Positions 5,950 to 53,541 are shown, numbered from the stretch's first letter. The stretch is 64,000 nucleotides of DNA from Candidatus Roizmanbacteria bacterium RIFCSPLOWO2_02_FULL_40_13 (GCA_001789965.1 MGBA01000021.1:28507-92506); one strand, 5' to 3'. A program made the numbers and translations. The notes: generated by a model not told the origin, from the letters alone.

Positions 5950-6234
5950 ATGAGTAGATCACTAAAAAAAGGACCATACATAGATCAAAGACTTTTTGAA
6001 AAAGTTACAAAACAAAAAGGATCGAGCGACAGAAGCCCTATAAGAACATGGGCGAGAGCGTCTCAGATACCGCCTGAATTTGTAGGGCACAGGATCGCAG
6101 TACATAACGGAAGAAAACATATAGAACTTTTGATAACCGAAGGAATGGTCGGGCACCGGCTTGGCGAGTTTGCACCGACACGAACATTCAGAACACACGG
6201 AAAAGTTACCAAAAAAGTAATTTCAGCAACATAA
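5950..6234 (+). CDS. rpsS: 30S ribosomal protein S19 in a non-canonical position
   Basis: 94-aa [23 protein letters not shown] and [13 protein letters not shown] closely match the S19 consensus. Confidence 0.96.
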
Positions 6235-9914: not shown

Positions 9915-11045
9915 ATGAAAATTGTTCTGACAGGAATTCAGGGATCAGGAAAATCAACTCAGGGAAATCTACTATCGAAACAATTAAATCTTCCATATCT
10001 TTCAACTGGTCATATTTTCCGTCAACTTGCCAAAAAGAAAACACAGTTAGGCCGCTATATAAAAACCGTTATGAACTCGGGTCTTTTGATTCCCGATAGT
10101 AAAACAATCCAGATCGTAAATAACTACCTGTCAAGAAAGGAATATAAAAGAGGGTATATTCTTGATGGATTTCCTCGAACGATCGAACAAGCTAAAAAGT
10201 TTAAAAACGACATCGATAAGTTTATTTTCCTTGAGATTCCTGATAAAGAAGCATTGTGGAGAATTTCCCACCGGAACGACAGCGGTCGAGATGACGAAAC
10301 CGTCGAGGCGGTCAGGATGAGAATAGAGGAATTTAATAAACACACAAAGCCTGTTATCGAGCACTATGACAAACTTGGAAAGTTAGAGACTGTTGACGGC
10401 ACTCAGAAAATCGAAGATGTAAACGAAGATATCCTAAAAAGTCTTGGAAAACAGCTTATTAAAAATCAAGTACAGTCATGGAGTCAAAAAACAAAGTCGA
10501 TAATTGCGATTGTTGGATTGCCGGGAGTGGGAAAGACTGAAGCAGCTGATTATTTCGCCAAAGAGGAAAAGTTGCCGGTAATATCTTTTGGAAAAATCAT
10601 AAACGACTATGTTGATTCACACGGTTTAAAGCATTCGATCGAGACTCACGAGAAACTCCGCGTTGATTTTAGAAAAAAGCACGGCATGGAAGCAATGGCG
10701 TACTTAAGTAAAGATAAAATACGAGAACTTCTTGAAAAACACATGATCATAGTCATTGATGGATTATATTCATGGGAAGAGTTTAAGTTTTTAAAAAAAG
10801 AGTTTCCGGAAGTGAAGGTGTATCTTTTAGCCTTATTCGCAGACAAAAAAACAAGGTATAGCCGAATATCCAAAAGAACTTATAGATCAGATCTTCATGG
10901 AGAAGACCGCGACATTCACGAACTAGAAGAGACAAACAAAGGGAATCCTATTGCTTTTGCTGACTTTATGGTGAAAAATAACTTCTCCATTCAGGACTTT
11001 CATGACAAGCTGGAAGACGTATATCGCGAAATCTACTATTCATAA
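9915..11045 (+). CDS. adk: Adenylate kinase (short LID) fused to a second P-loop NMP-kinase-like domain (UPF0200 / dephospho-CoA-kinase-like)
   Basis: The N-terminal ~185 aa carry GIQGSGKSTQ, ILDGFPRT and a short LID (HRNDSGRDDE). The C-terminal ~190 aa carry a second Walker A (GLPGVGKT), VIDGLYSWEEFKFLKKEF and RDIHELE. Confidence 0.85.
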   Translation: MKIVLTGIQGSGKSTQGNLLSKQLNLPYLSTGHIFRQLAKKKTQLGRYIKTVMNSGLLIPDSKTIQIVNNYLSRKEYKRGYILDGFPRTIEQAKKFKNDIDKFIFLEIPDKEALWRISHRNDSGRDDETVEAVRMRIEEFNKHTKPVIEHYDKLGKLETVDGTQKIEDVNEDILKSLGKQLIKNQVQSWSQKTKSIIAIVGLPGVGKTEAADYFAKEEKLPVISFGKIINDYVDSHGLKHSIETHEKLRVDFRKKHGMEAMAYLSKDKIRELLEKHMIIVIDGLYSWEEFKFLKKEFPEVKVYLLALFADKKTRYSRISKRTYRSDLHGEDRDIHELEETNKGNPIAFADFMVKNNFSIQDFHDKLEDVYREIYYS

Positions 11046-22697: not shown

Positions 22698-24776
22698 ATG
22701 AAATTTTCTTTAGACTTTTTAAAAAAGCAGCCTTCTGACGAGAGCTATCTCGGATTATTCTTAAAAGAAAAAAAAGGAGAGGTTATTTTTCTTGAAAAAA
22801 AGGGAAATAGACTAGACGTAATTACTAAAGAGCATTTTTCATATACGAACGGATGGGATAACATCGTCGAAGATGTTGATGATGTTTTATACAAGCTTGA
22901 GACCCACACTAAAAAATCTCCGGAGAAAGCGATTTTTTTTATTTACTCTCATCTCGTGGACGAATCGTCACGTGAAATAAAAGGACCGTTTCTTCACAAA
23001 ATAAAGGATCTGTCTAAAAAGCTCGAACTTAAACCGATGGGATACATTGAAAGTCATGAAGGAGTTGCGGGAATTCTGCAAGACAGGGAAGGAGTTGGGT
23101 TGACCGCTACATTGATTGAGCTCGACAGTTCATTTCTTTCTGTTTTTATCTACAAGAGCGGAAAAGTAATTTTTAAAGAGACCGTGCAGAGAACCCATGA
23201 GATCATTGATGATCTTATTCCGGTGTTTGAAAAAGTAAAACATATCGCAATGATGCCTACAAGAGTGATTCTGTATGACTCCCATAATACGAGCATGGAA
23301 GCTGAGAAAATACTCAGCCACCGATGGAGCGCAGAACTCTTCGTACAGCTCCCCAAAGTAGAGGTGGTGTCAGAGCAAGACATACTTGAAGGTCTTATAA
23401 ATCTTTTTTCGACTCAGGTTGCGCCTAGTGCAAAAGCAGAAACTTCTATCCCGGAAAAAAAAGAGACGCTTGGTTTTGTGATCGGTGGAGACGTTGGACC
23501 TAAAAAAGAAGTGGAGAAGGAACCAGAGCAGGAAGAGTTTGCAAACGAGCTTGAGTCAAAGCCAAATCCCTTCCAAGGCGTCCTCGCATCAATAATTGTT
23601 TTTTCAAAGAAAATAGCAAATGAAATAAAAAGCAAAAGCGGACGTTTAAAAACCGTACCGATTCCGGTGCTTGCCATAATTGGCGTTTGTTTGATTGCCC
23701 TCGCAGTGTTTTTGATGGAGTTTTATTTTCATAAGGCAGAGTTGACCATTTTTTTTCCAGCCAAAAAAATCGAAAAGTCTTTGACGCTTACCGGATCTAC
23801 CTCAAAAGAAGCGCAAGTTCTCGCATTAAATTCCGCAACTACTGCGACTCAGTTTACCGACTCTAAAAATGCAACAGGCAAAAAAGAGATCGGGGAAAAA
23901 GCAAAGGGAACCGTTACGATCTATAACAGTAGTCTTACGGAAGGAAAAAGTTTTTCTAAGGGGACTACGCTTACCTCTCCGAATTCAATAGAGTTAGTAT
24001 TAAATTCTGACGTGAAAGTCGCCTCAGCTTCAGGCGACGCCGCATCTGTGAAGCCAAGCACTACAAAGGTTGAGGTAACCGCGGCTGCAATCGGTCCAGA
24101 GGGCAATTTGGCATCTGATACTAAGTTTAGTGTTGAGGGAGAGTCGGCAGTGGTTATTGCAAAAAACGATTCAGCTCTTACCGGAGGAGTAAAGCGCTCG
24201 GTTCAAACCATTGCAAAACAAGACATAGACGACCTGAGAAAAAGAGCAATGGATAAAGCGAAAGACTTTAACAATAAAGAGGTCGAGTCAAAACTACAGG
24301 ACGATGTAAAAATTCTGAAAGACCTGAGTGAGATTCAGCTTAAAAATCCACAATTCTCTGGAGAGGTTGGAGAAGAAGCGGGTACTGTTTCCCTCAAGTC
24401 AAACATTACCATTACCTATTTCAGCTATAAACAAAATAACCTTCTCGATCTCATACAAGAAGACTTAAAAAAAGATATTAAAGCAGGAGAGGAAATACCA
24501 AAAGACTCACTTGAGTATTCAATTAAGAAAATTACAGAAAATAAAACCGATTACGACATTCTCGTAAGCGTTCAGGCAAAGGAGGTTAGGAAAATTGCCA
24601 AGGATGAGCTGGAAAATATAGCAACCGGTAAGAAAGACAAGGACATAGAAAAAATCCTTAAAGATAAATATGGAGCATCAGGACTTGAATTACAGGTGTC
24701 TGATCCATTACCATTATTTAAGAACAGGTTGCCGTTTTTCAAAAAAAATATTAACTTGAAAATTTCATATTTGTAA
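22698..24776 (+). CDS. Bitopic membrane protein: degenerate actin-like (FtsA/PilM-like) cytoplasmic domain, TM segment, Baseplate_J-like ectodomain. Function unknown.
   Basis: 692-aa ORF. The N-terminal ~245 aa show an ASKHA-like strand/helix pattern (YLGLFLKEKKGEV, LKPMGYIESHEGVAGIL, ATLIELDSSFLSVFIYKSGKV) without Gly-rich phosphate loops. TM segment is VPIPVLAIIGVCLIALAVFLMEFYF. The ectodomain motifs KAKGTVTIYNSS and VEVTAAAIGPEGN resemble Baseplate_J/gp47-family proteins from memory, with no search run. Confidence 0.45.
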   Translation: MKFSLDFLKKQPSDESYLGLFLKEKKGEVIFLEKKGNRLDVITKEHFSYTNGWDNIVEDVDDVLYKLETHTKKSPEKAIFFIYSHLVDESSREIKGPFLHKIKDLSKKLELKPMGYIESHEGVAGILQDREGVGLTATLIELDSSFLSVFIYKSGKVIFKETVQRTHEIIDDLIPVFEKVKHIAMMPTRVILYDSHNTSMEAEKILSHRWSAELFVQLPKVEVVSEQDILEGLINLFSTQVAPSAKAETSIPEKKETLGFVIGGDVGPKKEVEKEPEQEEFANELESKPNPFQGVLASIIVFSKKIANEIKSKSGRLKTVPIPVLAIIGVCLIALAVFLMEFYFHKAELTIFFPAKKIEKSLTLTGSTSKEAQVLALNSATTATQFTDSKNATGKKEIGEKAKGTVTIYNSSLTEGKSFSKGTTLTSPNSIELVLNSDVKVASASGDAASVKPSTTKVEVTAAAIGPEGNLASDTKFSVEGESAVVIAKNDSALTGGVKRSVQTIAKQDIDDLRKRAMDKAKDFNNKEVESKLQDDVKILKDLSEIQLKNPQFSGEVGEEAGTVSLKSNITITYFSYKQNNLLDLIQEDLKKDIKAGEEIPKDSLEYSIKKITENKTDYDILVSVQAKEVRKIAKDELENIATGKKDKDIEKILKDKYGASGLELQVSDPLPLFKNRLPFFKKNINLKISYL

Positions 24777-24777
24777 G

Positions 24778-25536
24778 ATGTCGTTATACGTATACGTCAG
24801 AGAGAAACAATCGGTTAAAAAAAAGGTAGTAAACTATGCTTCGTACGCGACTCTAACATTGGGATCGCTACTTCTGTTTTGGGCATTTTACCCCGTTATT
24901 TCGTTTGAGATCTATTCAAGACTGTTTATTCAGAGGCAGACCGCAACACCCGTACCTTCACCTCTTACCTCATCCCTCTCGATAGCAGACACCGTTATAG
25001 GCTCAAATAACGGCATTTTTTCCAATAATCTCCGGGATTTTACCCAGGCCAGCCTGTGGTTTCCTACATCGAAAAATCAGGCGCCTACGAGTACATTTAA
25101 GGCTAAAGAATACTCACTTTCTATCCCTAAGCTAAATATCGATAGAGCGCGGGTAATCGTGGGTGGAGAAGACCTCACAAAAGGTCTGGTACACTACCTT
25201 CCGGTAACACCTCCGGGGGAGCACGGAAACGTAGTTATTTTTGGTCATTCGACCTTACCCCAGCTTTATAATACAAAAGACTACAAGACTATTTTTACCT
25301 ATCTTCCTTCCTTGGAAAAAGGGGATAAGGTTCTGGTAAATAGCGATGGTGGAACTCTCGAATACCAAGTCTACGAGATGTTTGTCGTGAAACCGGATCA
25401 GATCTCTGTTTTGGAGCAAAAATTTGACGCATCCTACCTGACATTGGTAACCTGTGTTCCACCCGGGACTTACTGGAACAGACTCGTTGTGCGGGCGAAA
25501 TTATCTAAACTACCCGACCAGCTTTCATTGAAATAA
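24778..25536 (+). CDS. Sortase-family transpeptidase
   Basis: 252-aa ORF with an N-terminal TM segment and the catalytic triad context VIFGHS (His), LTLVTC (Cys) and NRLVVRA (Arg). Starts 1 nt after the preceding gene. Confidence 0.85.
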   Translation: MSLYVYVREKQSVKKKVVNYASYATLTLGSLLLFWAFYPVISFEIYSRLFIQRQTATPVPSPLTSSLSIADTVIGSNNGIFSNNLRDFTQASLWFPTSKNQAPTSTFKAKEYSLSIPKLNIDRARVIVGGEDLTKGLVHYLPVTPPGEHGNVVIFGHSTLPQLYNTKDYKTIFTYLPSLEKGDKVLVNSDGGTLEYQVYEMFVVKPDQISVLEQKFDASYLTLVTCVPPGTYWNRLVVRAKLSKLPDQLSLK

Positions 25537-33474: not shown

Positions 33475-35790
33475 TTAGATTACTGCCACAGTCTCCACTG
33501 TGCCGCCAGCGTATTGAAGAATTTGCCGGATTGAGTCCTGAAGAGCATTTTCAACCTGGCGCTTTGTGATATCAAAAACTCCGTCAACATTTATATAAAG
33601 ACTTTTTGTCTTTTCGGTGACTGCGGTTCTTTGCGCGTCTCGGTAATTGAAATCGATATTATAACCGCCCTTCTTATCAAAATATGCGATCTCTCCTTCT
33701 TTATATGTTGTTTCTACTTTATCTCCAAGCAAAAGAATTTTTTCATCTTTTTTTGCAAAGCGTAAAATAGTGGGAAAAGAGATGTTGTCAAGATCAAAAG
33801 CGCCAACAGAAACTTTACTGTTCATAACGACAAGGTTATACGCGTCAACAACATTATTAACAGAATACAATCCTTTTTTTAGAGCAATTCTTCGAAGTAA
33901 TGCTTCCGGTGAAGGCCTGCGTGAATGCCAGTCAATTCCCGTTGCCTTGTAAAGTTTTCGGTAACTTTGAATTTCCGGATAAGCGCTGAGGATTTCATTA
34001 GTGAGATTGCCATGTTGTTTAATAAACGCATCCGTTCTTTTTTTTAACTCCGCAGAAGCTTTCTCTATCCTGACGTTTTTAATGATCGCGACTCCTATGT
34101 GGATAGAGGGGTAGGTTTTCTTTAATCGAGAGTCAATAGAAAAAATCTTCTTGCTTATTTTATTTGTAAAGCTTGATTTCGATGTAGTTGTCGAATTATT
34201 TTTTGCAATGTTTATATCCTTAAGTCTTGCGACCACTTTATCGATTCCAAACTCTAAGATCAGGTCTGCAGCTTTCGGTCCATGCTCTCTTCCTAGAAGA
34301 GCTTTATAAAATGCAGAAAATACTTCTTTTGCCTGAAAACTATTTCTCTTCAGCGTATCGAAAACAATTTGTTGTAGGTCTTCTCTCGAAGGATCTTTCT
34401 TTTTTTCAATATTTTCCGCAAGCTTATTCAGAAAATCCTTTTGCTTGATGGTTAAATCTTTTGGTGAATCCTTGGTCAATTGTATTTTATCTTCAGGATT
34501 TGCATAATTTTTGAGATAAACTTGTGCGTAAACGACTCTCTCTTCTAATATTTCTCGTTCTTCTGCTGTTAATTTTGAGCCCTTTTGTTCTTCAAAAAAA
34601 GTAAGTACGTCTCCTTTTGTTCTTGCGTGACTCGCTACCGTTCGAAATCGGGGAAGGAATAATCTTTTTTTAGGTAAAGGCCTGACTTCTGAAAGTTCGG
34701 CGATTCTTGCAAAATCATTTAAAACTTCTCCCGTCTTACCTTCTGGAATCTTATTTTCTAATTTGTCGAAGTATGCAGCAAGACAACGGTCGTATTCGTC
34801 AAATAAACTTGGAATCGTATCTCCTTCAGGCTGGAAATCAATAGTTCTTTCGATTGGCGTGCGAACCATAAGAAATCGTAGTAATTCAGGGGGAAGTATT
34901 TGGGAAACTTCTTTTGAAGACGACCCGAGTCCTTTAGAAGAAGACATTTTTTTTCCACCGATAATGAAAAATTCATAGGTAACCGGATGGGGAATAGGGT
35001 AATGAAGTACCTTGCGGCAGATTTCAGATGCAATATCATGTGAGCCGCCAGCTGACATATGGTCTTTTCCGGCTCCTTCTACTGTTATACCGATAACCTT
35101 CCATTTTGCGGCCCACTCAACCTTCCATGTTAACTTTCCGTTTCCATCGAAAGGAGATATTTTTCCTTCATGACCGCAGCCTTTTGCCCACACAACCATA
35201 TCCAGCTCACAGCGGTAGTGAACGTATTTACCATCCCACTTGAAAACCTTTGTGGTTCCGATTTTTTTACAATTCTCACAGACTGGATTAAACGGATACC
35301 AATCTTTCGGAAGCTTTTTCTTATACATTTTTTCATAGATCGTTTTTACGAAATTAACATTATTAAGTATTTCGGTGATGACGTCATTCATTTTTCCTGA
35401 TTTGTATAAATCCGATCCCCATATAATTTCAGGGTGGCAGTTTATAGAATTAAATACGCTTATAAACTCTTTGGCATAGTAATCTGCAAAACTTTTAAAT
35501 CCCGGCTCTGGTGAAGGTACGTTAAAAAGCTGAAGTCCTGAGTATTTCTCCCACTTTTTTTTATCAAGATATGACGGAATTGCATCCATCGGATCATGAT
35601 CGTCAAAGACATACGTAAATTTAGTTTTTGCTCCCGCATCAAGAAGCGCTTTATATAGAAGATCGTGTATCACGACACCACGGAGAGAGCCGACGTGGAT
35701 ACGGCCCGATGGCGTTTTCATGTCATCTACCCACTCAAGAGGAAGTTCTCTTTTTGCAATTCGATTTGCTTCTCTGTCGACCCAGATCAT
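33475..35790 (-). CDS. lysK: Class I lysyl-tRNA synthetase fused to a C-terminal B3/4 (PheRS-beta editing-like) domain
   Basis: 771-aa ORF. Residues ~1-530 carry the class I signatures SGRIHVGSLRG (HIGH-like) and KMSSSKG (KMSKS). Residues ~550-771 carry the B3/4 motif RRPSPEALLRRI...NNVVDAYNLVVMNSKVSVGAFDLD. Confidence 0.85.
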   Translation of the reverse strand: MIWVDREANRIAKRELPLEWVDDMKTPSGRIHVGSLRGVVIHDLLYKALLDAGAKTKFTYVFDDHDPMDAIPSYLDKKKWEKYSGLQLFNVPSPEPGFKSFADYYAKEFISVFNSINCHPEIIWGSDLYKSGKMNDVITEILNNVNFVKTIYEKMYKKKLPKDWYPFNPVCENCKKIGTTKVFKWDGKYVHYRCELDMVVWAKGCGHEGKISPFDGNGKLTWKVEWAAKWKVIGITVEGAGKDHMSAGGSHDIASEICRKVLHYPIPHPVTYEFFIIGGKKMSSSKGLGSSSKEVSQILPPELLRFLMVRTPIERTIDFQPEGDTIPSLFDEYDRCLAAYFDKLENKIPEGKTGEVLNDFARIAELSEVRPLPKKRLFLPRFRTVASHARTKGDVLTFFEEQKGSKLTAEEREILEERVVYAQVYLKNYANPEDKIQLTKDSPKDLTIKQKDFLNKLAENIEKKKDPSREDLQQIVFDTLKRNSFQAKEVFSAFYKALLGREHGPKAADLILEFGIDKVVARLKDINIAKNNSTTTSKSSFTNKISKKIFSIDSRLKKTYPSIHIGVAIIKNVRIEKASAELKKRTDAFIKQHGNLTNEILSAYPEIQSYRKLYKATGIDWHSRRPSPEALLRRIALKKGLYSVNNVVDAYNLVVMNSKVSVGAFDLDNISFPTILRFAKKDEKILLLGDKVETTYKEGEIAYFDKKGGYNIDFNYRDAQRTAVTEKTKSLYINVDGVFDITKRQVENALQDSIRQILQYAGGTVETVAVI

Positions 35791-47786: not shown

Positions 47787-48458
47787 ATGAAATACATTAT
47801 AGCGAATTGGAAAGCTCATAAAACTCTGGAGGAAGCGTCAGCTTGGGTGGACTCAGTAAATAAACAAATTTCTCAAACTCCAGACGTACAGCGGAAACTG
47901 GAAGATGACGAATTGATAATTCTAATTGCTGCGCCATTCCCCTTTCTGGTTCCACTTTCTCAGAAGATCTCGCAAAAAAATCTAGCTGTTGCCGCTCAAG
48001 ACGTTTCTGTTTATGGCGAGGGAGCATATACCGGCGAAGTTACTGCAAAAATGCTCAAGGGAGTCACGACCCATGTTTTAATCGGACACAGCGAACGAAA
48101 GGATTATTTCCACGAGACTGACGAGGTGGTGTTAAAAAAATCAGAACAGGTACTGTCACAAGGACTTTCGCCCATCTTCTGTATTCAAAACGAATCCAAT
48201 AAAATACCCGAGGGAGCAAACATTATCGCCTATGACCCAAAAGAAGCAATTGGTACTGGAAAAAATGTTCCGGGAGAAGAGACTGCAACATTCAGAAAAA
48301 AATTAAATCTTTTTCCGGATGCGGTATTTCTCTATGGCGGTAGCGTTAACCCAGAAAGTATTGATGAGTATCTATCACATCCTGAGATAAATGGTTTTCT
48401 GGTGGGCGGTTCATCTCTTGATCCTGAGGAGTTTTTCGAACTGGTGAAAAAACTATGA
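47787..48458 (+). CDS. tpiA: Triosephosphate isomerase (short, with Asp at the catalytic Glu position)
   Basis: IANWKAHK (catalytic Lys), IGHSERK (His), AYDPKEAIGTG (loop 6) and YGGSV. I prefer the ATG at 47787; the track start at 47748 is a TTG overlapping the helicase start. Confidence 0.85.
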   Translation: MKYIIANWKAHKTLEEASAWVDSVNKQISQTPDVQRKLEDDELIILIAAPFPFLVPLSQKISQKNLAVAAQDVSVYGEGAYTGEVTAKMLKGVTTHVLIGHSERKDYFHETDEVVLKKSEQVLSQGLSPIFCIQNESNKIPEGANIIAYDPKEAIGTGKNVPGEETATFRKKLNLFPDAVFLYGGSVNPESIDEYLSHPEINGFLVGGSSLDPEEFFELVKKL

Positions 48459-49501
48459 AGGGTCCAGTATCTTCAAAAAAAGTAAAAATCTGGATCATCG
48501 GAATCGCAATTTTACTTTTCGTACTAATTTTCTTTGGCCCTTATTATCTTTTCCTCACAAGGGATCTTAAAATTTCTCCATTTCAAACTCTTTTTCTCTC
48601 AGGTGGTCTAAGAAAAGTAAACGATCAGGTAAATGTGCTCATTTTGGGAATTCCCGGTGGAAATCATGACGGTCCTTTGTTATCCGATTCTATGATTGTT
48701 CTCAACTATGACTTTAATAAAAGGAGAGCCGTGACCATAGGAATGCCCAGAGATGTGTGGAGCGCGACCTTGCAGGATCGTTTAAATTCAGCATACGCCT
48801 ACGGAGAAGCGAAAAAACCCGGTGGCGGACTCACTCTTGCAAAGGCAGAAGTCGGCGCGGTCGTAGGAATGCCGATTCAGTATGTGGTTGTAATGAATTT
48901 TAGCGAATTTAAAGATATTATTGATTACTTCGGAGGTATAGACATCGAAGTAAAGAATTCATTTACCGATAAAAAATTTCCTCTTGAAGGTAAGGAGAGC
49001 GACGAATGTAATGGTGATGCGGAGTATCGTTGTAGATATGAAACGGTTCACTTCACCCAAGGAAAACAACATATGGATGGTAATACAGCACTGAAATTTG
49101 TGAGATCGCGAAATGCAATCGGAAAAGAAGGAAGTGATTTTGCACGTAGTCTCCGTCAGCAAGCAGTTACCGAAGAAATGAAAGGAAAAATAGTAAAAAC
49201 AGCCTTTACCTTTAACCTCGGAAAAATAAAAGAAATGTATTCAATTCTTGACAAATCTGTTCAAAGAGACATTAGCAATCAACAGGCAGCCGCTCTCGGC
49301 AAGAAATTGATATTTGATGGGAAGTTTTATGAAAAAAACTTTGGACTTCCGCGGGAGTTATTTACTATACCCGACGGAAGTGATTATGAGGGGAAATACG
49401 TGCTCATACCAGCTGTAAGTTTCCAGAATGTCTACGATTACACCCATTGTCTTTTATCAAAAGAAGATGAAGTGAAATGCAGTTCTTTAGTAAAGAATTG
49501 A
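48455..49501 (+). CDS. LytR-CpsA-Psr (LCP) family cell-wall glycopolymer transferase
   Basis: 348-aa ORF. N-terminal TM segment and LCP motifs LILGIPGG...LSDSMIVLNYD...GMPRDVW, ALKFVRSR. Confidence 0.85.
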   Translation: MKGPVSSKKVKIWIIGIAILLFVLIFFGPYYLFLTRDLKISPFQTLFLSGGLRKVNDQVNVLILGIPGGNHDGPLLSDSMIVLNYDFNKRRAVTIGMPRDVWSATLQDRLNSAYAYGEAKKPGGGLTLAKAEVGAVVGMPIQYVVVMNFSEFKDIIDYFGGIDIEVKNSFTDKKFPLEGKESDECNGDAEYRCRYETVHFTQGKQHMDGNTALKFVRSRNAIGKEGSDFARSLRQQAVTEEMKGKIVKTAFTFNLGKIKEMYSILDKSVQRDISNQQAAALGKKLIFDGKFYEKNFGLPRELFTIPDGSDYEGKYVLIPAVSFQNVYDYTHCLLSKEDEVKCSSLVKN

Positions 49502-50197
49502 GAAGAAAACCGTTAAAGCTCCTAGAAGTAAGATAAATAACTGAGGTTGAACTGTTGCCGCAACCGGCAAAGTCTGAGGAGTTGTAGGTGTAGGACTACT
49601 CACAGAGGCTACCGCAGCTTTTGTAGGAGTAAGTGTCGCGCTTGCGGATGTTGAAATTAACGTTACGGTTGGTGTACCCGTGGTCGTCTCAGGTCCGCCT
49701 ACGGGAGGAGTTGTGGGCGTGATACTTTCTATAGGTACGCCCGTAACAGTAGGTGTTACATTTTCAGCAAGCACCACATCTGTTGGAGTTGGCGTGACGA
49801 AAAGAGCTTCTTGAGTAATTTCCGGAGATGGGCCTTCAGTTACATTCACATCTGCACGTGTTCTTATCGGAGGAGGAACTTCTTCGGGAGTTTGAGTGCT
49901 TTGAATTGTGACAAATAAAATGACGCCAAGAAAAGCAATAAGGGTAACAGCTATCATCACGGCAAGATTCTTATGCTTTTTTAGCGTTTTCGGTTTTTCA
50001 TTTTCAGAACTGGGTGCTGGAGTATAGTTATGAGCTTGTACTACGCGTGAGGGATTAAACGTCGGAATTTTGGGTTTTTCCTTTTTCTTTTTTTCCTTTT
50101 GAAATAAGTAAAATTCATATCCCAAAACTCCAAGAGTTAAAATAAAGAAAAAAATACTGACTTTATTGACTGAACCTAACAACTCAAGTACATCCAT
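49487..50197 (-). CDS. Thr/Pro-rich surface protein with N- and C-terminal TM segments
   Basis: 236-aa ORF. Two N-terminal TM segments flank a Lys-rich loop. A ~100-aa mucin-like T/P/V region follows, then a C-terminal LPVAATVQPQ and a hydrophobic tail. Confidence 0.5.
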   Translation of the reverse strand: MDVLELLGSVNKVSIFFFILTLGVLGYEFYLFQKEKKKKEKPKIPTFNPSRVVQAHNYTPAPSSENEKPKTLKKHKNLAVMIAVTLIAFLGVILFVTIQSTQTPEEVPPPIRTRADVNVTEGPSPEITQEALFVTPTPTDVVLAENVTPTVTGVPIESITPTTPPVGGPETTTGTPTVTLISTSASATLTPTKAAVASVSSPTPTTPQTLPVAATVQPQLFILLLGALTVFFSILY

Positions 50198-50200
50198 ACC

Positions 50201-51454
50201 TTACAACGCAAATACTAAAAGCCACATTCCAATAGTAACAAGACTCAGTGATGAGAAAACAAGTAGCGAAGTATTTACTCCGCTCACAGGAGGCGTAGGA
50301 GTAGTATTAGCAATAATTGTTGGTGAGGGAGACGCTGTGGGAATAGCTGCACCCGTTGCTTCTCCAAGGACCTGTTCTCCGCTTTTTGCAATTGAAAAGT
50401 TCCGCGTAAGAAGGGTTTCTTTTCCATTTGTGTCCGGCGTGCGGACAGTAAGAGTGTGTTTGCCGGCAGAAAGAGGACTCGCCAGACTTATACTCCAAAA
50501 TCCATCACCACCTATTTTTGTTTTTACTGTTGCGTCCTTTTTTGTATCGGTGACCACTGCTGAGAGATTGCTGTTTGGGATACCGGTTCCCCGTATAAGA
50601 GGGGTTGAACCCGGAACAATTGCGTTTTCCCGCGGAAAAAGAATCTCGATTTTTACTCTTTTATCATCGGTTACAGATAAAACATTTTCTTTTTTATTCA
50701 GATTGTAATTTTTTCCTAATATTATAGTTTCAGGTAAGGGACTCAGATTTGAGATGTTGGTTTGGACGCTGGAGCGGTTTCCATTATCCGAAAAAAGTTC
50801 AATTTTAATCACCTCATCTTTAGAAAGGACCTTGAGTGCTCCTGTTTTTTTATCAATTATATAGTTAAGAGGAATCAGCCACTCGCCGGAAGCTTTTGAA
50901 AGAGCTGATAGTAAATACGCATTGTTTGCCGACAAAAGAACGATAACATTATCAAGAGGCGCTCCGTTTGAATCCGTCACCTTGCCATATGCAGGTTTCA
51001 GATTGCTCACCCTTGAAGTTCGTGGCAAAGTGGATAAGGAGAAAGCTCTTCCCTCCGGATTTGCAATAAGCTCCTTATTATTAACAAGCTTAAAAAAATA
51101 CTCGTTTGAAGGAGTTAGATTCTTCAATATTACATAATGAGTAAGCCTTGCCGTTTTACTATCCTGAAAATCGCGCTCATCAAGCGCTATTTGGTTGAGC
51201 TTATTTTCTTGAGATCCGTATGCAATCCAACCGGGTTCCTTTTGCTCTGTTTGCCAAAATATGGCGACTTGGCTCGAAGATAGATTGGTTACTTCGACGT
51301 TTTTTATTACTTTTTTTGTCGCTCTTGAAGAAGGAGGTTCGCTTCTAAAGAAAACAATACTTACAAATACCACAACGACTATCACCACTGCAAAAGACAA
51401 CCATGTGGGAATCTGAACTTCTTTTCGAGAATATATATCGGTGAAGGAGGTCAT
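50201..51454 (-). CDS. Surface protein with FN3-like and Ig-like domains, anchored at both termini
   Basis: 417-aa ORF. N-terminal TM, an FN3-like segment (VEVTNLSSSQVAIFWQTEQKEPGWIAYG...THYVILKNLTPSNEYFFK), an Ig-like segment (PLIRGTGIPNSNLSAVV...GFWSISLASPLSAGKHTLTVRT), and a C-terminal hydrophobic tail. Confidence 0.5.
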   Translation of the reverse strand: MTSFTDIYSRKEVQIPTWLSFAVVIVVVVFVSIVFFRSEPPSSRATKKVIKNVEVTNLSSSQVAIFWQTEQKEPGWIAYGSQENKLNQIALDERDFQDSKTARLTHYVILKNLTPSNEYFFKLVNNKELIANPEGRAFSLSTLPRTSRVSNLKPAYGKVTDSNGAPLDNVIVLLSANNAYLLSALSKASGEWLIPLNYIIDKKTGALKVLSKDEVIKIELFSDNGNRSSVQTNISNLSPLPETIILGKNYNLNKKENVLSVTDDKRVKIEILFPRENAIVPGSTPLIRGTGIPNSNLSAVVTDTKKDATVKTKIGGDGFWSISLASPLSAGKHTLTVRTPDTNGKETLLTRNFSIAKSGEQVLGEATGAAIPTASPSPTIIANTTPTPPVSGVNTSLLVFSSLSLVTIGMWLLVFAL

Positions 51455-51455
51455 C

Positions 51456-51641
51456 TTAGTGATTTTTTGACTTAAGAACTTCTACCATCTCTTTGCTTAT
51501 CGCTGTTTCTTTTATAAGAGGAAGACTCACATTGTCTTTTTCATATTCCCGCGCCGCCGCATGATAAATATCTGCCATAAGCCATGCGATTACCGTACAA
51601 AATACTCCGATTGAGATCAGCAAAAATTCCTTTCTATTCAT
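51456..51641 (-). CDS. Small single-pass membrane protein
   Basis: 61-aa ORF with one TM segment (FLLISIGVFCTVIAWLMADIY). ATGA overlap with the upstream gene and a 1-nt gap to the downstream gene. Confidence 0.5.
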   Translation of the reverse strand: MNRKEFLLISIGVFCTVIAWLMADIYHAAAREYEKDNVSLPLIKETAISKEMVEVLKSKNH

Positions 51642-52225
51642 AAGTAATATCCTTCAATTTCAAGTTGAAATTTAAGACCGGCACTTCCAGTCGCTTCGCT
51701 TTTTTGTCTTGTGATTTCAAACTTTCTAATTTTTTTAAGACGTCTTTGATTATAAACTTCCTCTATTGATTTTAATAAATTTTCAAAAGAAGATGTTGCC
51801 TCAATGTTAAAGGTAGTGGATTGTAATTTTCCCTTCGTCTTATCTACGAGATTAACTTCTCCTGAGTTAAATTTTTCGATTGTCACTGAGTTGGTCGCAG
51901 TCGCATTCTCAACGTCTCCAATCAACTCGTTCATATTAGGGCGTCGAGGGATAGCTTCTCCAAAAAGATGGAGATCGTCTCTATATGTTTCAAAAGAAGA
52001 TTGTATATCGACTATTTTGGAGATAACCGATTCGTACCGTGAATTAAGTGCGAAAAGCTGCTCTTCCTCTTGTTTAAGAGAAAAGGCCGTGACAAGTGAA
52101 GGGCGGATTGCAAAAAAAACAAAGATTGAAAATACCAGAAAGAACAACGATGCAAAAGTATAATCTTTTGCCTTTTTTGAAGAGATTTGTTTTAAGAGTT
52201 GTTTTAACAGATTTTGTTTATCCAT
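51638..52225 (-). CDS. PilO-like type IV pilus assembly protein
   Basis: 195-aa ORF with the PilO architecture: a short cytoplasmic N-terminus, TM segment (FASLFFLVFSIFVFFAI), coiled coil, then an alpha/beta C-terminal domain. It directly follows the PilN-like gene. Confidence 0.5.
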   Translation of the reverse strand: MDKQNLLKQLLKQISSKKAKDYTFASLFFLVFSIFVFFAIRPSLVTAFSLKQEEEQLFALNSRYESVISKIVDIQSSFETYRDDLHLFGEAIPRRPNMNELIGDVENATATNSVTIEKFNSGEVNLVDKTKGKLQSTTFNIEATSSFENLLKSIEEVYNQRRLKKIRKFEITRQKSEATGSAGLKFQLEIEGYYL

Positions 52226-52226
52226 A

Positions 52227-52769
52227 TTATTTTTTTGCTTTTGAAACTTTTATTCCGGTATCAAGCTCGATAGTAAATGAATATCCACTTTCCCCACGTT
52301 TCACATTGACAAGCGCAACAGAAGGAAATTTATTCTCTTTTTTCAATCTGTTATAAAAAAGCTGGAGGTGTTGAGGGTTGAGGGCAACGCCGGTGAGTGT
52401 CAATTTTCCCTCGTCAAATACCATATGGTCAAGAACAAGAGCCTCGGGAAATATAGACAATATATATCTAACAGAAGAAAGCAGGTTGTCTTGGTCCTTC
52501 AGGATTTGTTTTGATTCCGCTGCCTGGTCGTTTATCTTTTTTGCTTCTGCAAGAATTGGTTGAACGACCTCTATGATCGCTCTTTTTTGTCCGATTGAAT
52601 CTCGAAGATCAATTATTGTCTCATCTACACTGAAACGAAAGAAGAAAACCACGAGAACAATGAGCTGTGTAAAAACCAGGATATAACGTAAATAATGGAG
52701 AAAGAAATAAACAATCTTGTCGACTATATTTGGCTGCTTTTTCCCTGCAAGATTGATGTTATATTTCAT
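52227..52769 (-). CDS. PilN-like type IV pilus assembly protein
   Basis: 180-aa ORF. N-terminal YNINL (the PilN INLLP-type PilM-binding motif), a TM segment, a coiled coil, and a C-terminal LTLTGVALNPQHLQLFYNRLKK pattern. Confidence 0.55.
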   Translation of the reverse strand: MKYNINLAGKKQPNIVDKIVYFFLHYLRYILVFTQLIVLVVFFFRFSVDETIIDLRDSIGQKRAIIEVVQPILAEAKKINDQAAESKQILKDQDNLLSSVRYILSIFPEALVLDHMVFDEGKLTLTGVALNPQHLQLFYNRLKKENKFPSVALVNVKRGESGYSFTIELDTGIKVSKAKK

Positions 52770-53026
52770 TTGGCCGATTTCGTCTTAATATGTACCGTAC
52801 GAGAAGCTTTTGACTTTAATCGGCTCGCCTTTTTTTTATGAATGACGCCACGTTTTGCTGCTTTATCAATCGCCTTGTATGCTTTTGAAAGAACATCCCT
52901 TTTGTCTTTAGCAGTTCCTTTGAGCTGTTTTAAGGCTTTTTTATAAGACTTTTCATACAGCTTATTTCGTACTAATCTTTTTTTTGTTTGTCTGAGACGT
53001 TTTTTTGCGGACTTTATGATAGGCAT
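52766..53026 (-). CDS. rpsT: 30S ribosomal protein S20
   Basis: 86-aa ORF with MPIIKSAKKRLRQTKKRLVRNK and IDKAAKRGVIHKKKASRLKS. Preceded by a perfect AAGGAGGT. Confidence 0.93.
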   Translation of the reverse strand: MPIIKSAKKRLRQTKKRLVRNKLYEKSYKKALKQLKGTAKDKRDVLSKAYKAIDKAAKRGVIHKKKASRLKSKASRTVHIKTKSAK

Positions 53027-53067: not shown

Positions 53068-53541
53068 TTAGAGATCATATTCCTTCTCAAAGATCCGTTG
53101 TCCGTAACCTCCGTTAAATATAAGCGAAAGTCTGACCGGTCCGACTACAGTATGGTAGACACAGGTGCCGGAAGAACAGGTGCCCAATGTCACTGTTTTG
53201 GAGAAAAAACTTTCTCTAGATTTCAGTTCAACGGTACCTATTGCTCCCTGAGGTCCTTGTCCTTGGGCATCATACGATAGTTCGTACTCTACGGATTTTG
53301 TTCCAGAAGGCATATTTTTTACAGAAAGCTCCACTTCTTTTTTATTGGGTTTTGCTTTTAGGCTGATCTGTACGGATGCATCAACGGTCGGAATCGCTTC
53401 CTCATTGTTCAAGACATCTTCCATCTGACTTTTTTTCGATTGGTTAGATGAAATAAAGAAAAAAATTCCTCCTAAAACAACCAAAACAACAACTACAAGA
53501 GCAGCTGCAACAGCTTTCTTATTCTTCAAAAATGCTTCCAT
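53068..53541 (-). CDS. TM-anchored extracellular beta-rich protein, function unknown
   Basis: 157-aa ORF. N-terminal TM segment (AAALVVVVLVVLGGIFFFI) followed by a beta-rich domain with CSSGTC. Confidence 0.45.
   Translation of the reverse strand: MEAFLKNKKAVAAALVVVVLVVLGGIFFFISSNQSKKSQMEDVLNNEEAIPTVDASVQISLKAKPNKKEVELSVKNMPSGTKSVEYELSYDAQGQGPQGAIGTVELKSRESFFSKTVTLGTCSSGTCVYHTVVGPVRLSLIFNGGYGQRIFEKEYDL

Follow-up and report, generated by a model that had tools for sequence, protein, structure and literature searches.

Organization of the gene block

We analyzed a 64,000-nucleotide (nt) stretch of DNA, hereafter the window, from Candidatus Roizmanbacteria bacterium RIFCSPLOWO2_02_FULL_40_13 (GCA_001789965.1 MGBA01000021.1:28507-92506), in which genes for the type IV pilus alignment proteins PilN and PilO lie directly behind a ribosomal protein gene and ahead of three genes for membrane or surface proteins. 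The minus strand carries all six genes, beginning with rpsT, which encodes ribosomal protein S20 (86 amino acids, or aa; 52766..53026; Pfam PF01649) and is followed by pilN (180 aa; 52227..52769; PF05137), pilO (195 aa; 51638..52225; PF04350), and genes encoding a 61-aa single-pass membrane peptide (51456..51641), a 417-aa surface protein (50201..51454), and a 236-aa protein (49487..50197). An earlier note on this DNA had described the six genes, and an open reading frame (ORF) check of the window confirmed every one of its coordinates and junctions: from rpsT to the 236-aa gene, these are −4, +1, −4, +1, and +3 nt. At the rpsT/pilN junction, rpsT ends ...GCC AAA TGA and the overlapping pilN frame begins ATG AAA TAT, such that the TGA stop and the ATG share the sequence ATGA; the other −4 junction, between pilO and the 61-aa gene, is likewise an ATGA overlap. 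Close packing is nothing unusual for this genome: of the 61 co-directional junctions that the window contains, 29 measure ≤5 nt and 7 are −4 overlaps. Packing alone is thus unremarkable; it is conservation in about 165 related loci that makes the block a real feature.

Identity of PilN and PilO

The 180-aa protein matches the Pfam PilN model with 34.6 bits (cut-off, 22.8; E = 1.9e-8), and its relatives carry the name PilN from both JGI and NCBI. When a profile built from 22 homologs was compared with the PDB, the top match was Myxococcus xanthus PilN (3jc8 chain N). The protein consists of a cytoplasmic N-terminus (MKYNINL), a transmembrane helix, a coiled-coil helix, and a beta-beta-alpha-beta-beta core. 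An AlphaFold2 model based on 55 homologs (mean predicted local distance difference test score, pLDDT, of 86.9) shows this PilN architecture, with a disordered N-terminal tail, a long helix at residues 15 to 106, and core strands at 111 to 119, 122 to 129, 150 to 158, and 163 to 170 around a helix at 132 to 145. In a Foldseek search of the PDB, this model matched best the periplasmic domains of XcpY/PulL/EpsL (GspL), with target TM-scores of 0.68 to 0.76 and root mean square deviations of 2.1 to 2.5 Å, and then PulM; GspL is the type II secretion counterpart of PilN.

The 195-aa protein scores 29.6 bits against the Pfam PilO model (cut-off, 22), covering model positions 5 to 141 of 145, and its top PDB profile match is M. 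xanthus PilO (3jc8 chain O; E = 2e-4). It is predicted to be a bitopic membrane protein and has a conserved QRRLK motif close to its C-terminus. Hydropathy places its transmembrane segment at residues 22 to 40; by the same measure, PilN and the 61-aa peptide also have one transmembrane segment each. An hhalign comparison of the PilN profile with the PilO profile gave no signal and is uninformative. The 180- and 195-aa proteins, which had been called PilN- and PilO-like before, are genuine PilN and PilO, encoded in the canonical N-then-O order.

Surface proteins encoded downstream of pilO

The 61-aa peptide has no Pfam or NCBIfam match; its single transmembrane helix closes in a conserved (A/F)DIYHA motif. 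The 417-aa protein matches Pfam families Pur_ac_phosph_N (residues 53 to 127), CarboxypepD_reg (157 to 195), and Big_13 (278 to 347), such that FN3-like, CarboxypepD_reg-like, and Ig domains can be assigned, together with a Thr/Pro linker. The 236-aa protein starts with a two-transmembrane anchor whose segments are separated by a basic loop and continues into a stalk that is mucin-like in composition (25% Thr and 17% Pro over residues 101 to 215). Thus, the FN3/Ig character of the former and the Thr/Pro-rich character of the latter, both claimed in the earlier note, hold up.

Hydropathy indicates hydrophobic segments at both the N- and the C-termini of these two proteins, and the earlier note took them to be anchored at both ends. 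An N-terminal anchor or signal is consistent with our data, but the C-terminal segments are better read as sortase-type sorting signals. We counted such signals in aligned C-termini of orthologs from 80 genomes. In the 417-aa family, 58 of 72 orthologs have a [LPQ]Px[ST]G motif (PPVSG, PPVTG, PPTSG, LPKTG, etc.) followed by a hydrophobic tail; in the 236-aa family, 38 of 65 have an LPxTG-type signal and a hydrophobic tail, with LPETG being the commonest motif and LPTTG, LPLTG, and LPxAG also occurring. The window copies read PPVSG (417 aa) and LPVAA (236 aa; a degenerate LPxTG), and within the window, these two ORFs are the only ones with a C-terminal pattern resembling a sorting signal. No basic tail past the hydrophobic segment was found in the window copies, which end ...LLVFAL and ...FFSILY; most orthologs also lack one, while one distant homolog ends ...LLTKRFS. 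Judged by these motifs, both proteins are presumably processed by a sortase. The only sortase gene seen in the window (24778..25536, plus strand; Pfam PF04203, 93.7 bits) is the candidate for the enzyme that would act on both signals.

The two-transmembrane N-terminus of the 236-type protein bears unrelated ectodomains in other genomes, and the gene is absent from some loci. Differing ectodomains on a constant N-terminus suggest a diversifying surface part on a constant membrane dock. A 685-aa gene behind the FN3/Ig gene in one locus (L095) was considered as a homolog of the 692-aa protein discussed below, but was rejected: its N-terminal anchor is that of the 236-aa family.

Two observations concern genes near these proteins. 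In three wider-clade loci (L112, 10200-13059; L167, 12762-15661; and L095, 8184-12753), the module is followed by a FAD amine-oxidase-like gene and by PMT_2 (protein mannosyltransferase-like) glycosyltransferase genes, a hint at glycosylation of the surface proteins. In the window, a LytR-CpsA-Psr (LCP) gene (48455-49501, plus strand) converges on the 236-aa gene, with the 3′ ends overlapping by 15 nt, and this neighborhood is conserved in Roizmanbacteria. Because attachment of glycopolymers to the wall is the function of LCP enzymes, their activity and the adjacency of the two genes make glycosylation or wall attachment of the neighboring proteins conceivable.

Conservation of the module

We searched for close relatives, taking one genome per species, and found 171; the best 80 of the 171, all Roizmanbacteria or Microgenomates, were used. 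Nearly all of these 80 share the gene order DUF4012-RecO-GlyRS-p157-S20-PilN-PilO-p61-p417-p236, where p denotes a protein named by its length in the window. The ATGA overlaps are kept as well, in 66 of 77 Roizmanbacteria loci at rpsT/pilN and in 67 of 80 loci at pilO/61-aa gene. In two loci (L054 and L080), a divergent murJ replaces the upstream genes, and the block from rpsT onward stays together and moves as a unit.

A PilN profile search of 1.84 billion representative sequences yielded 2,712 clusters at E ≤1e-3 and 71 at E ≤1e-30. In a relative whose PilN is 27% identical, the order is murJ (reverse strand), then S20, PilN, PilO, a 64-aa peptide, an FN3/Ig protein, and a 236-type anchor protein. 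To sample this wider clade, we seeded a metagenome scan with distant PilN sequences, obtained 80 further loci, and labeled their genes with hidden Markov models. PilO lies downstream of pilN in 55 of 56 loci, the 61-aa peptide in 48 of 54, the FN3/Ig protein in all 34 loci with enough sequence, and the 236-type protein in 14 of 27. S20 is encoded directly upstream of pilN in 29 of 56 loci, always across a gap (34 to 93 nt) and never with an overlap; other upstream neighbors include a UvrD/AddB-like gene and murJ. The proposal that the downstream surface genes are conserved partners of PilN and PilO is thereby upheld, and the selected unit is PilN-PilO-p61-FN3/Ig, often with a two-transmembrane anchor protein of variable ectodomain.

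The gene between glyS and rpsT in most Roizmanbacteria (53068-53541, minus strand, in the window) encodes a 157-aa protein of no known family, with an N-terminal transmembrane helix and a beta-rich domain that carries an invariant LGTCSSGTCVYH motif. Its absence from the two rearranged loci suggests that it probably does not belong to the module. Many of the metagenome-assembled genomes bearing the locus (L008, L010 to L018, and others) are titled "uncultured Gammaproteobacteria bacterium," an evident placeholder or mislabel.

Linkage to rpsT and expression

The rpsT product is an ordinary S20 (61.7 bits against PF01649; cut-off, 29.5). The sequence AAGGAGGT lies 6 nt upstream of its ATG, and a strong Shine-Dalgarno (SD) sequence precedes rpsT in 72% of species compared to 5% for pilN; only at rpsT is an SD frequent. 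Starts without an SD are the norm in these genomes, however, and so the lack of one at pilN is not, on its own, proof of coupling. Our promoter and terminator scan gave no more hits than in shuffled sequence. In the regions upstream of the glyS, p157, and p236 genes of loci L003 to L086, we observed for many genes a TATAAT-like box 6 to 10 nt before the ATG and no SD; this suggests leaderless or very short-leader mRNAs, to which rpsT, with its strong SD, would be the exception.

Translational coupling of the pilus genes to rpsT, as postulated in the earlier note, is compatible with the overlap retained among Roizmanbacteria, but rpsT is dispensable in the wider clade, where it is gapped when present; we regard coupling as suggestive only. 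The adjacency of rpsT is frequent, tightened in a lineage-specific manner, and dispensable in the wider clade, and the coupling probably represents an arrangement for expression in a compact genome, rather than a part of the apparatus or a functional connection with the ribosome.

The PilN N-terminus and the search for PilM

The most conserved part of PilN is its N-terminus. The YNINL sequence there had been proposed to be the type of peptide that binds PilM; the MKYNINL start is confirmed, and residues I5, N6, and L7 do not vary among 22 homologs with identities as low as 30%, many of which read INLLPE. Every wider-clade PilN that we inspected has I-[NE]-[LF]-[LIV]-P, and the I-N-L-(L-P) motif is near-invariant across relatives, as would befit a PilM-binding peptide. 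In canonical PilN, an INLLP-type N-terminal motif docks into PilM; established structures of the complex from Thermus and Pseudomonas (e.g., PDB 5EOU) have the N-terminal peptide of PilN seated between PilM subdomains 1A and 1C. Near-invariance of the motif leads us to expect a PilM-type partner elsewhere in the genome, rather than a machine that does without PilM.

No such partner is encoded nearby. We read 84 kb, comprising the 64-kb window and 10 kb past each end. Pfam searches of nearly all ORFs of ≥100 aa identified no PilM, PilB, PilC, PilT, PilD, or secretin in the window, and the 10 kb past either end contain no pilus genes. A regular-expression scan for prepilin N-termini found none in the window and a single chance match across the window and 86 related loci. 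No pilM adjoins the module in the approximately 165 related loci that we looked at (86 plus 81). The earlier note was therefore correct that pilin, PilB, PilC, and PilQ genes are missing from the vicinity and that rpsT replaces pilM upstream of pilN, where the canonical arrangement would have it. Its description of a locus with no PilM applies to adjacent genes, but the conserved PilN motif speaks for a PilM-type partner encoded elsewhere. Some upstream ORFs seemed to be candidates but proved otherwise: three in L054 and L080 (544, 420, and 321 aa, PilB-, PilC-, and PilM-like in size) are, according to Pfam, MurJ, a pyrimidine-nucleoside phosphorylase-like protein, and YceG, and odd upstream ORFs of wider-clade loci, considered as PilM, encode MurJ, a PD-(D/E)XK/UvrD_C nuclease, and a cohesin-like protein instead.

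Published surveys make a distant PilM plausible. Candidate phyla radiation (CPR) bacteria widely encode PilB, PilT, PilC, PilM, PilN, PilO, and PilD, but no PilQ, and type IV pili, PilM included, are reported to be widespread among them (PMC6744442); most classes of Patescibacteria conserve pilus machinery genes (PMC12206443). In the closed Microgenomates genome Ch65, a single pilus locus contains pilins, PilD, PilB, PilT, PilC, and PilM, with neither PilN nor PilO listed (PMC7143001), which is as expected if PilN and PilO are encoded in a detached module. Our literature search returned nothing specific on pili of Roizmanbacteria.

The 692-aa actin-like protein

The earlier note had pointed to an actin-like protein of 692 aa (22698-24776, plus strand) as a possible partner for the PilN peptide. 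This protein belongs to no Pfam family; in Microgenomates, its gene is conserved directly upstream of the sortase gene and downstream of genes for VanW and a solute-binding protein. In several genomes (L056 and L093, for example), no more than about 10 kb separates it from the module; here it is 25 kb away on the opposite strand. An AlphaFold2 model (48 homologs; pLDDT, 83) predicts a cytoplasmic ASKHA core at residues 16 to 241, a transmembrane helix at 322 to 343, and an ectodomain rich in beta structure, the end of which consists of a long helix plus a beta-beta-alpha-beta-beta unit; hhalign detected no signal between the C-terminal region of the protein and the PilN and PilO profiles.

An actin-like domain is thus present, but it is a minimal one: two plain beta3-alpha-beta-alpha-beta-alpha lobes with no 1C-type insertion. 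The top Foldseek matches to the core are Ppx/GppA, BT_3980, and EutJ, with PilM only at rank 23; sequence searches of the PDB, Pfam, and NCBIfam were empty, and neither Pfam PilM nor T2SSL was matched even at E ≤10. Because a 1C-type subdomain forms half of the known groove for the PilN peptide, the 692-aa protein is a weak PilM surrogate. We rejected it as a stand-in for PilM or GspL on the basis of its minimal fold and the empty sequence and profile searches, and retain it only as a low-probability partner.

Interpretation of the locus

We think it fairly likely that the locus encodes the PilN-PilO pair of a type IV pilus machine, split from the pilM, motor, and pilin genes and combined with lineage-specific envelope partners. 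It is probably not a categorically new apparatus, but a variant of the alignment module of type IV pili to which surface proteins of the sortase type have been added. The "PilNO-scaffolded surface apparatus" of the earlier note is upheld in part, in that PilN and PilO do have conserved downstream partners, but the locus is better understood as a split alignment module of a pilus.

In such a machine, PilN and PilO would form a membrane heterodimer, and the cytoplasmic tail of PilN would dock a PilM encoded elsewhere and so connect the module with the PilB/PilC/PilT motor. In what would be a single-membrane cell without a secretin, the operon positions of diderm PilP and PilQ are held by the 61-aa peptide and the FN3/Ig protein; these two may fasten the platform to the cell wall or help the fiber pass through it. 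The last (236-type) protein would display a variable, probably glycosylated surface domain. rpsT would contribute a strong ribosome-binding site and probably a promoter, with the ATGA overlap permitting termination-reinitiation into pilN.

Several points weigh against this interpretation. No pilus motor, PilM, PilD, or pilin gene lies within the 84 kb, or within 8 to 10 kb on either side of the module in the related loci, nor did the regular-expression scan reveal a prepilin-type gene accompanying the module; that PilM, PilB, PilC, PilD, and pilins are present in the rest of the genome would be an expectation from the literature. Among Roizmanbacteria, the surrounding housekeeping synteny is conserved too, making gene order weaker evidence there than in the wider clade. 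The roles suggested for the 61-, 417-, and 236-aa proteins derive from gene order and conservation, and the sorting signals in the window are non-canonical and lack a basic tail.

Alternatively, this may be an ordinary PilN-PilO pair that has come to share a transcript with functionally unrelated envelope or housekeeping genes (rpsT and those for the 61-, 417-, and 236-aa proteins) through genome compaction. Almost half of the co-directional junctions in the window are ≤5 nt, Roizmanbacteria also conserve a 15-gene housekeeping synteny around the block, about half of the wider-clade loci no longer have rpsT next to pilN, and the 236-type gene is missing from some loci. We nevertheless consider such an accident unlikely: the wider-clade loci keep PilO, the 61-aa peptide, and the FN3/Ig protein together with PilN at the high frequencies given above while the flanks vary (MurJ, UvrD/AddB-like, and others), the pilO/61-aa overlap is retained in most close relatives, and, unless the linkage is under selection, its survival at 27% PilN identity would be difficult to account for.

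Somewhat less probable, in our estimation, is a surface apparatus independent of pili, essentially as the earlier note saw it. PilN and PilO would here serve, after co-option, as a membrane scaffold on which the FN3/Ig protein and the variable-ectodomain protein are displayed or assembled in a sortase-dependent manner, with a cytoplasmic partner other than PilM, such as the 692-aa ASKHA-transmembrane protein. That no pilus gene ever adjoins the module in the loci examined would fit, as would the sortase-type signals on both downstream proteins; the 692-aa protein has a confidently predicted actin-like N-terminal domain with PilM among its Foldseek matches, and its gene is conserved beside that of the sortase and is within about 10 kb of the module in genomes such as L056 and L093. 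But I-N-L-L-P, the signature of PilM binding, is conserved here as in canonical PilN; the ASKHA core is minimal, has no 1C-type insertion, and resembles Ppx/GppA and EutJ more than PilM; and the position of the 692-aa gene relative to the module is not fixed. In addition, type IV pili are reported to be widespread to near-universal in CPR bacteria (PMC6744442). A self-contained Microgenomates envelope machine, in which PilN-PilO, the 61-aa peptide, the FN3/Ig protein, and the anchor protein work with sortase and possibly the ASKHA-transmembrane protein instead of a pilus motor, is the least probable of these possibilities; if it existed, PilN and PilO would be a scaffold repurposed to assemble or display wall-anchored surface proteins.

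Bacteria without an outer membrane have neither a secretin nor PilP by which a type IV pilus could be braced against the wall and cross it. The 61-aa peptide and the wall-targeted FN3/Ig protein, which are genetically linked to PilN-PilO in hundreds of Microgenomates genomes, are candidates for the parts that would span the envelope or provide anchorage to the wall in the CPR pilus machine. Our findings also imply that pilus genes of reduced genomes can be split, in which case PilN and PilO of this lineage would escape annotation pipelines and pilus-locus surveys confined to the surroundings of pilB, pilC, or pilM. The linkage to rpsT would provide an example of a ribosomal gene driving expression of an unrelated membrane module, but is probably not mechanistically deep.

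Other features of the window

Three unrelated features were observed elsewhere in the window. In the large ribosomal cluster, rpsS (S19) lies between rpsN (S14) and rpsH (S8) (~5950-6234, plus strand; 15933-16217 in L090), and L2 is followed directly by L22; the usual site of rpsS is between rplB (L2) and rplV (L22). A class I lysyl-tRNA synthetase (tRNA-synt_1f; 33475-35790, minus strand) carries a C-terminal fusion to a B3_4 domain, which is normally found in the beta subunit of phenylalanyl-tRNA synthetase. In the spc/secY region, a 376-aa fusion protein (9915-11045, plus strand) combines adenylate kinase with a second P-loop kinase-like domain (AAA_18).

Comparison with known systems

The downstream proteins resemble sortase-anchored LPXTG proteins of Gram-positive bacteria in having a C-terminal pentapeptide and hydrophobic tail, Ig-/FN3-like domains, a Thr/Pro stalk, and a sortase gene; they differ in their motifs (PPV[ST]G and LPVAA) and, for the window copies, in lacking a basic tail. 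A genetic link to PilN-PilO is, to our knowledge, not a feature of any sortase substrate. The type II secretion proteins GspL and GspM are also similar: the PilN model superposes best on GspL periplasmic domains and also matches PulM, and the PilO profile gives a weak full-length NCBIfam alignment with GspM. GspL, however, has its own fused PilM-like cytoplasmic domain, whereas window PilN has only a tail of about 20 residues with the PilM-binding motif; moreover, no other type II secretion genes are present here, in a cell without an outer membrane.

The closest parallel is the alignment subcomplex of type IVa pili, PilM-PilN-PilO(-PilP-PilQ), of M. xanthus, Pseudomonas aeruginosa, and Thermus thermophilus. 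Both have PilN before PilO, a bitopic transmembrane and coiled-coil architecture (predicted, for the window proteins), the INLLP-type motif, and further envelope proteins encoded behind pilO; a ferredoxin-like core is also seen in the PilN model and would be expected of PilO. Type IVa loci have pilM upstream, where rpsT is usually found here, and encode the PilP lipoprotein and PilQ secretin, in place of which (no such Pfam match was obtained) the module has genes for the 61-aa peptide, the FN3/Ig protein, and the two-transmembrane anchor protein. Unlike type IVa loci, the window module has no motor or pilin genes near it.

Pilus loci of other CPR bacteria (Patescibacteria) belong to the same superphylum and share a monoderm-like envelope and the absence of a secretin, and PilN and PilO are CPR-enriched families. 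In the loci of Saccharibacteria TM7x, pilC-pilB-pilT-pilM-pilN-pilO-pilD and the pilin genes are co-located (PMC12206443, PMC6744442); in the Roizmanbacteria locus, by contrast, pilN and pilO are detached from that set and joined instead to genes for surface proteins.

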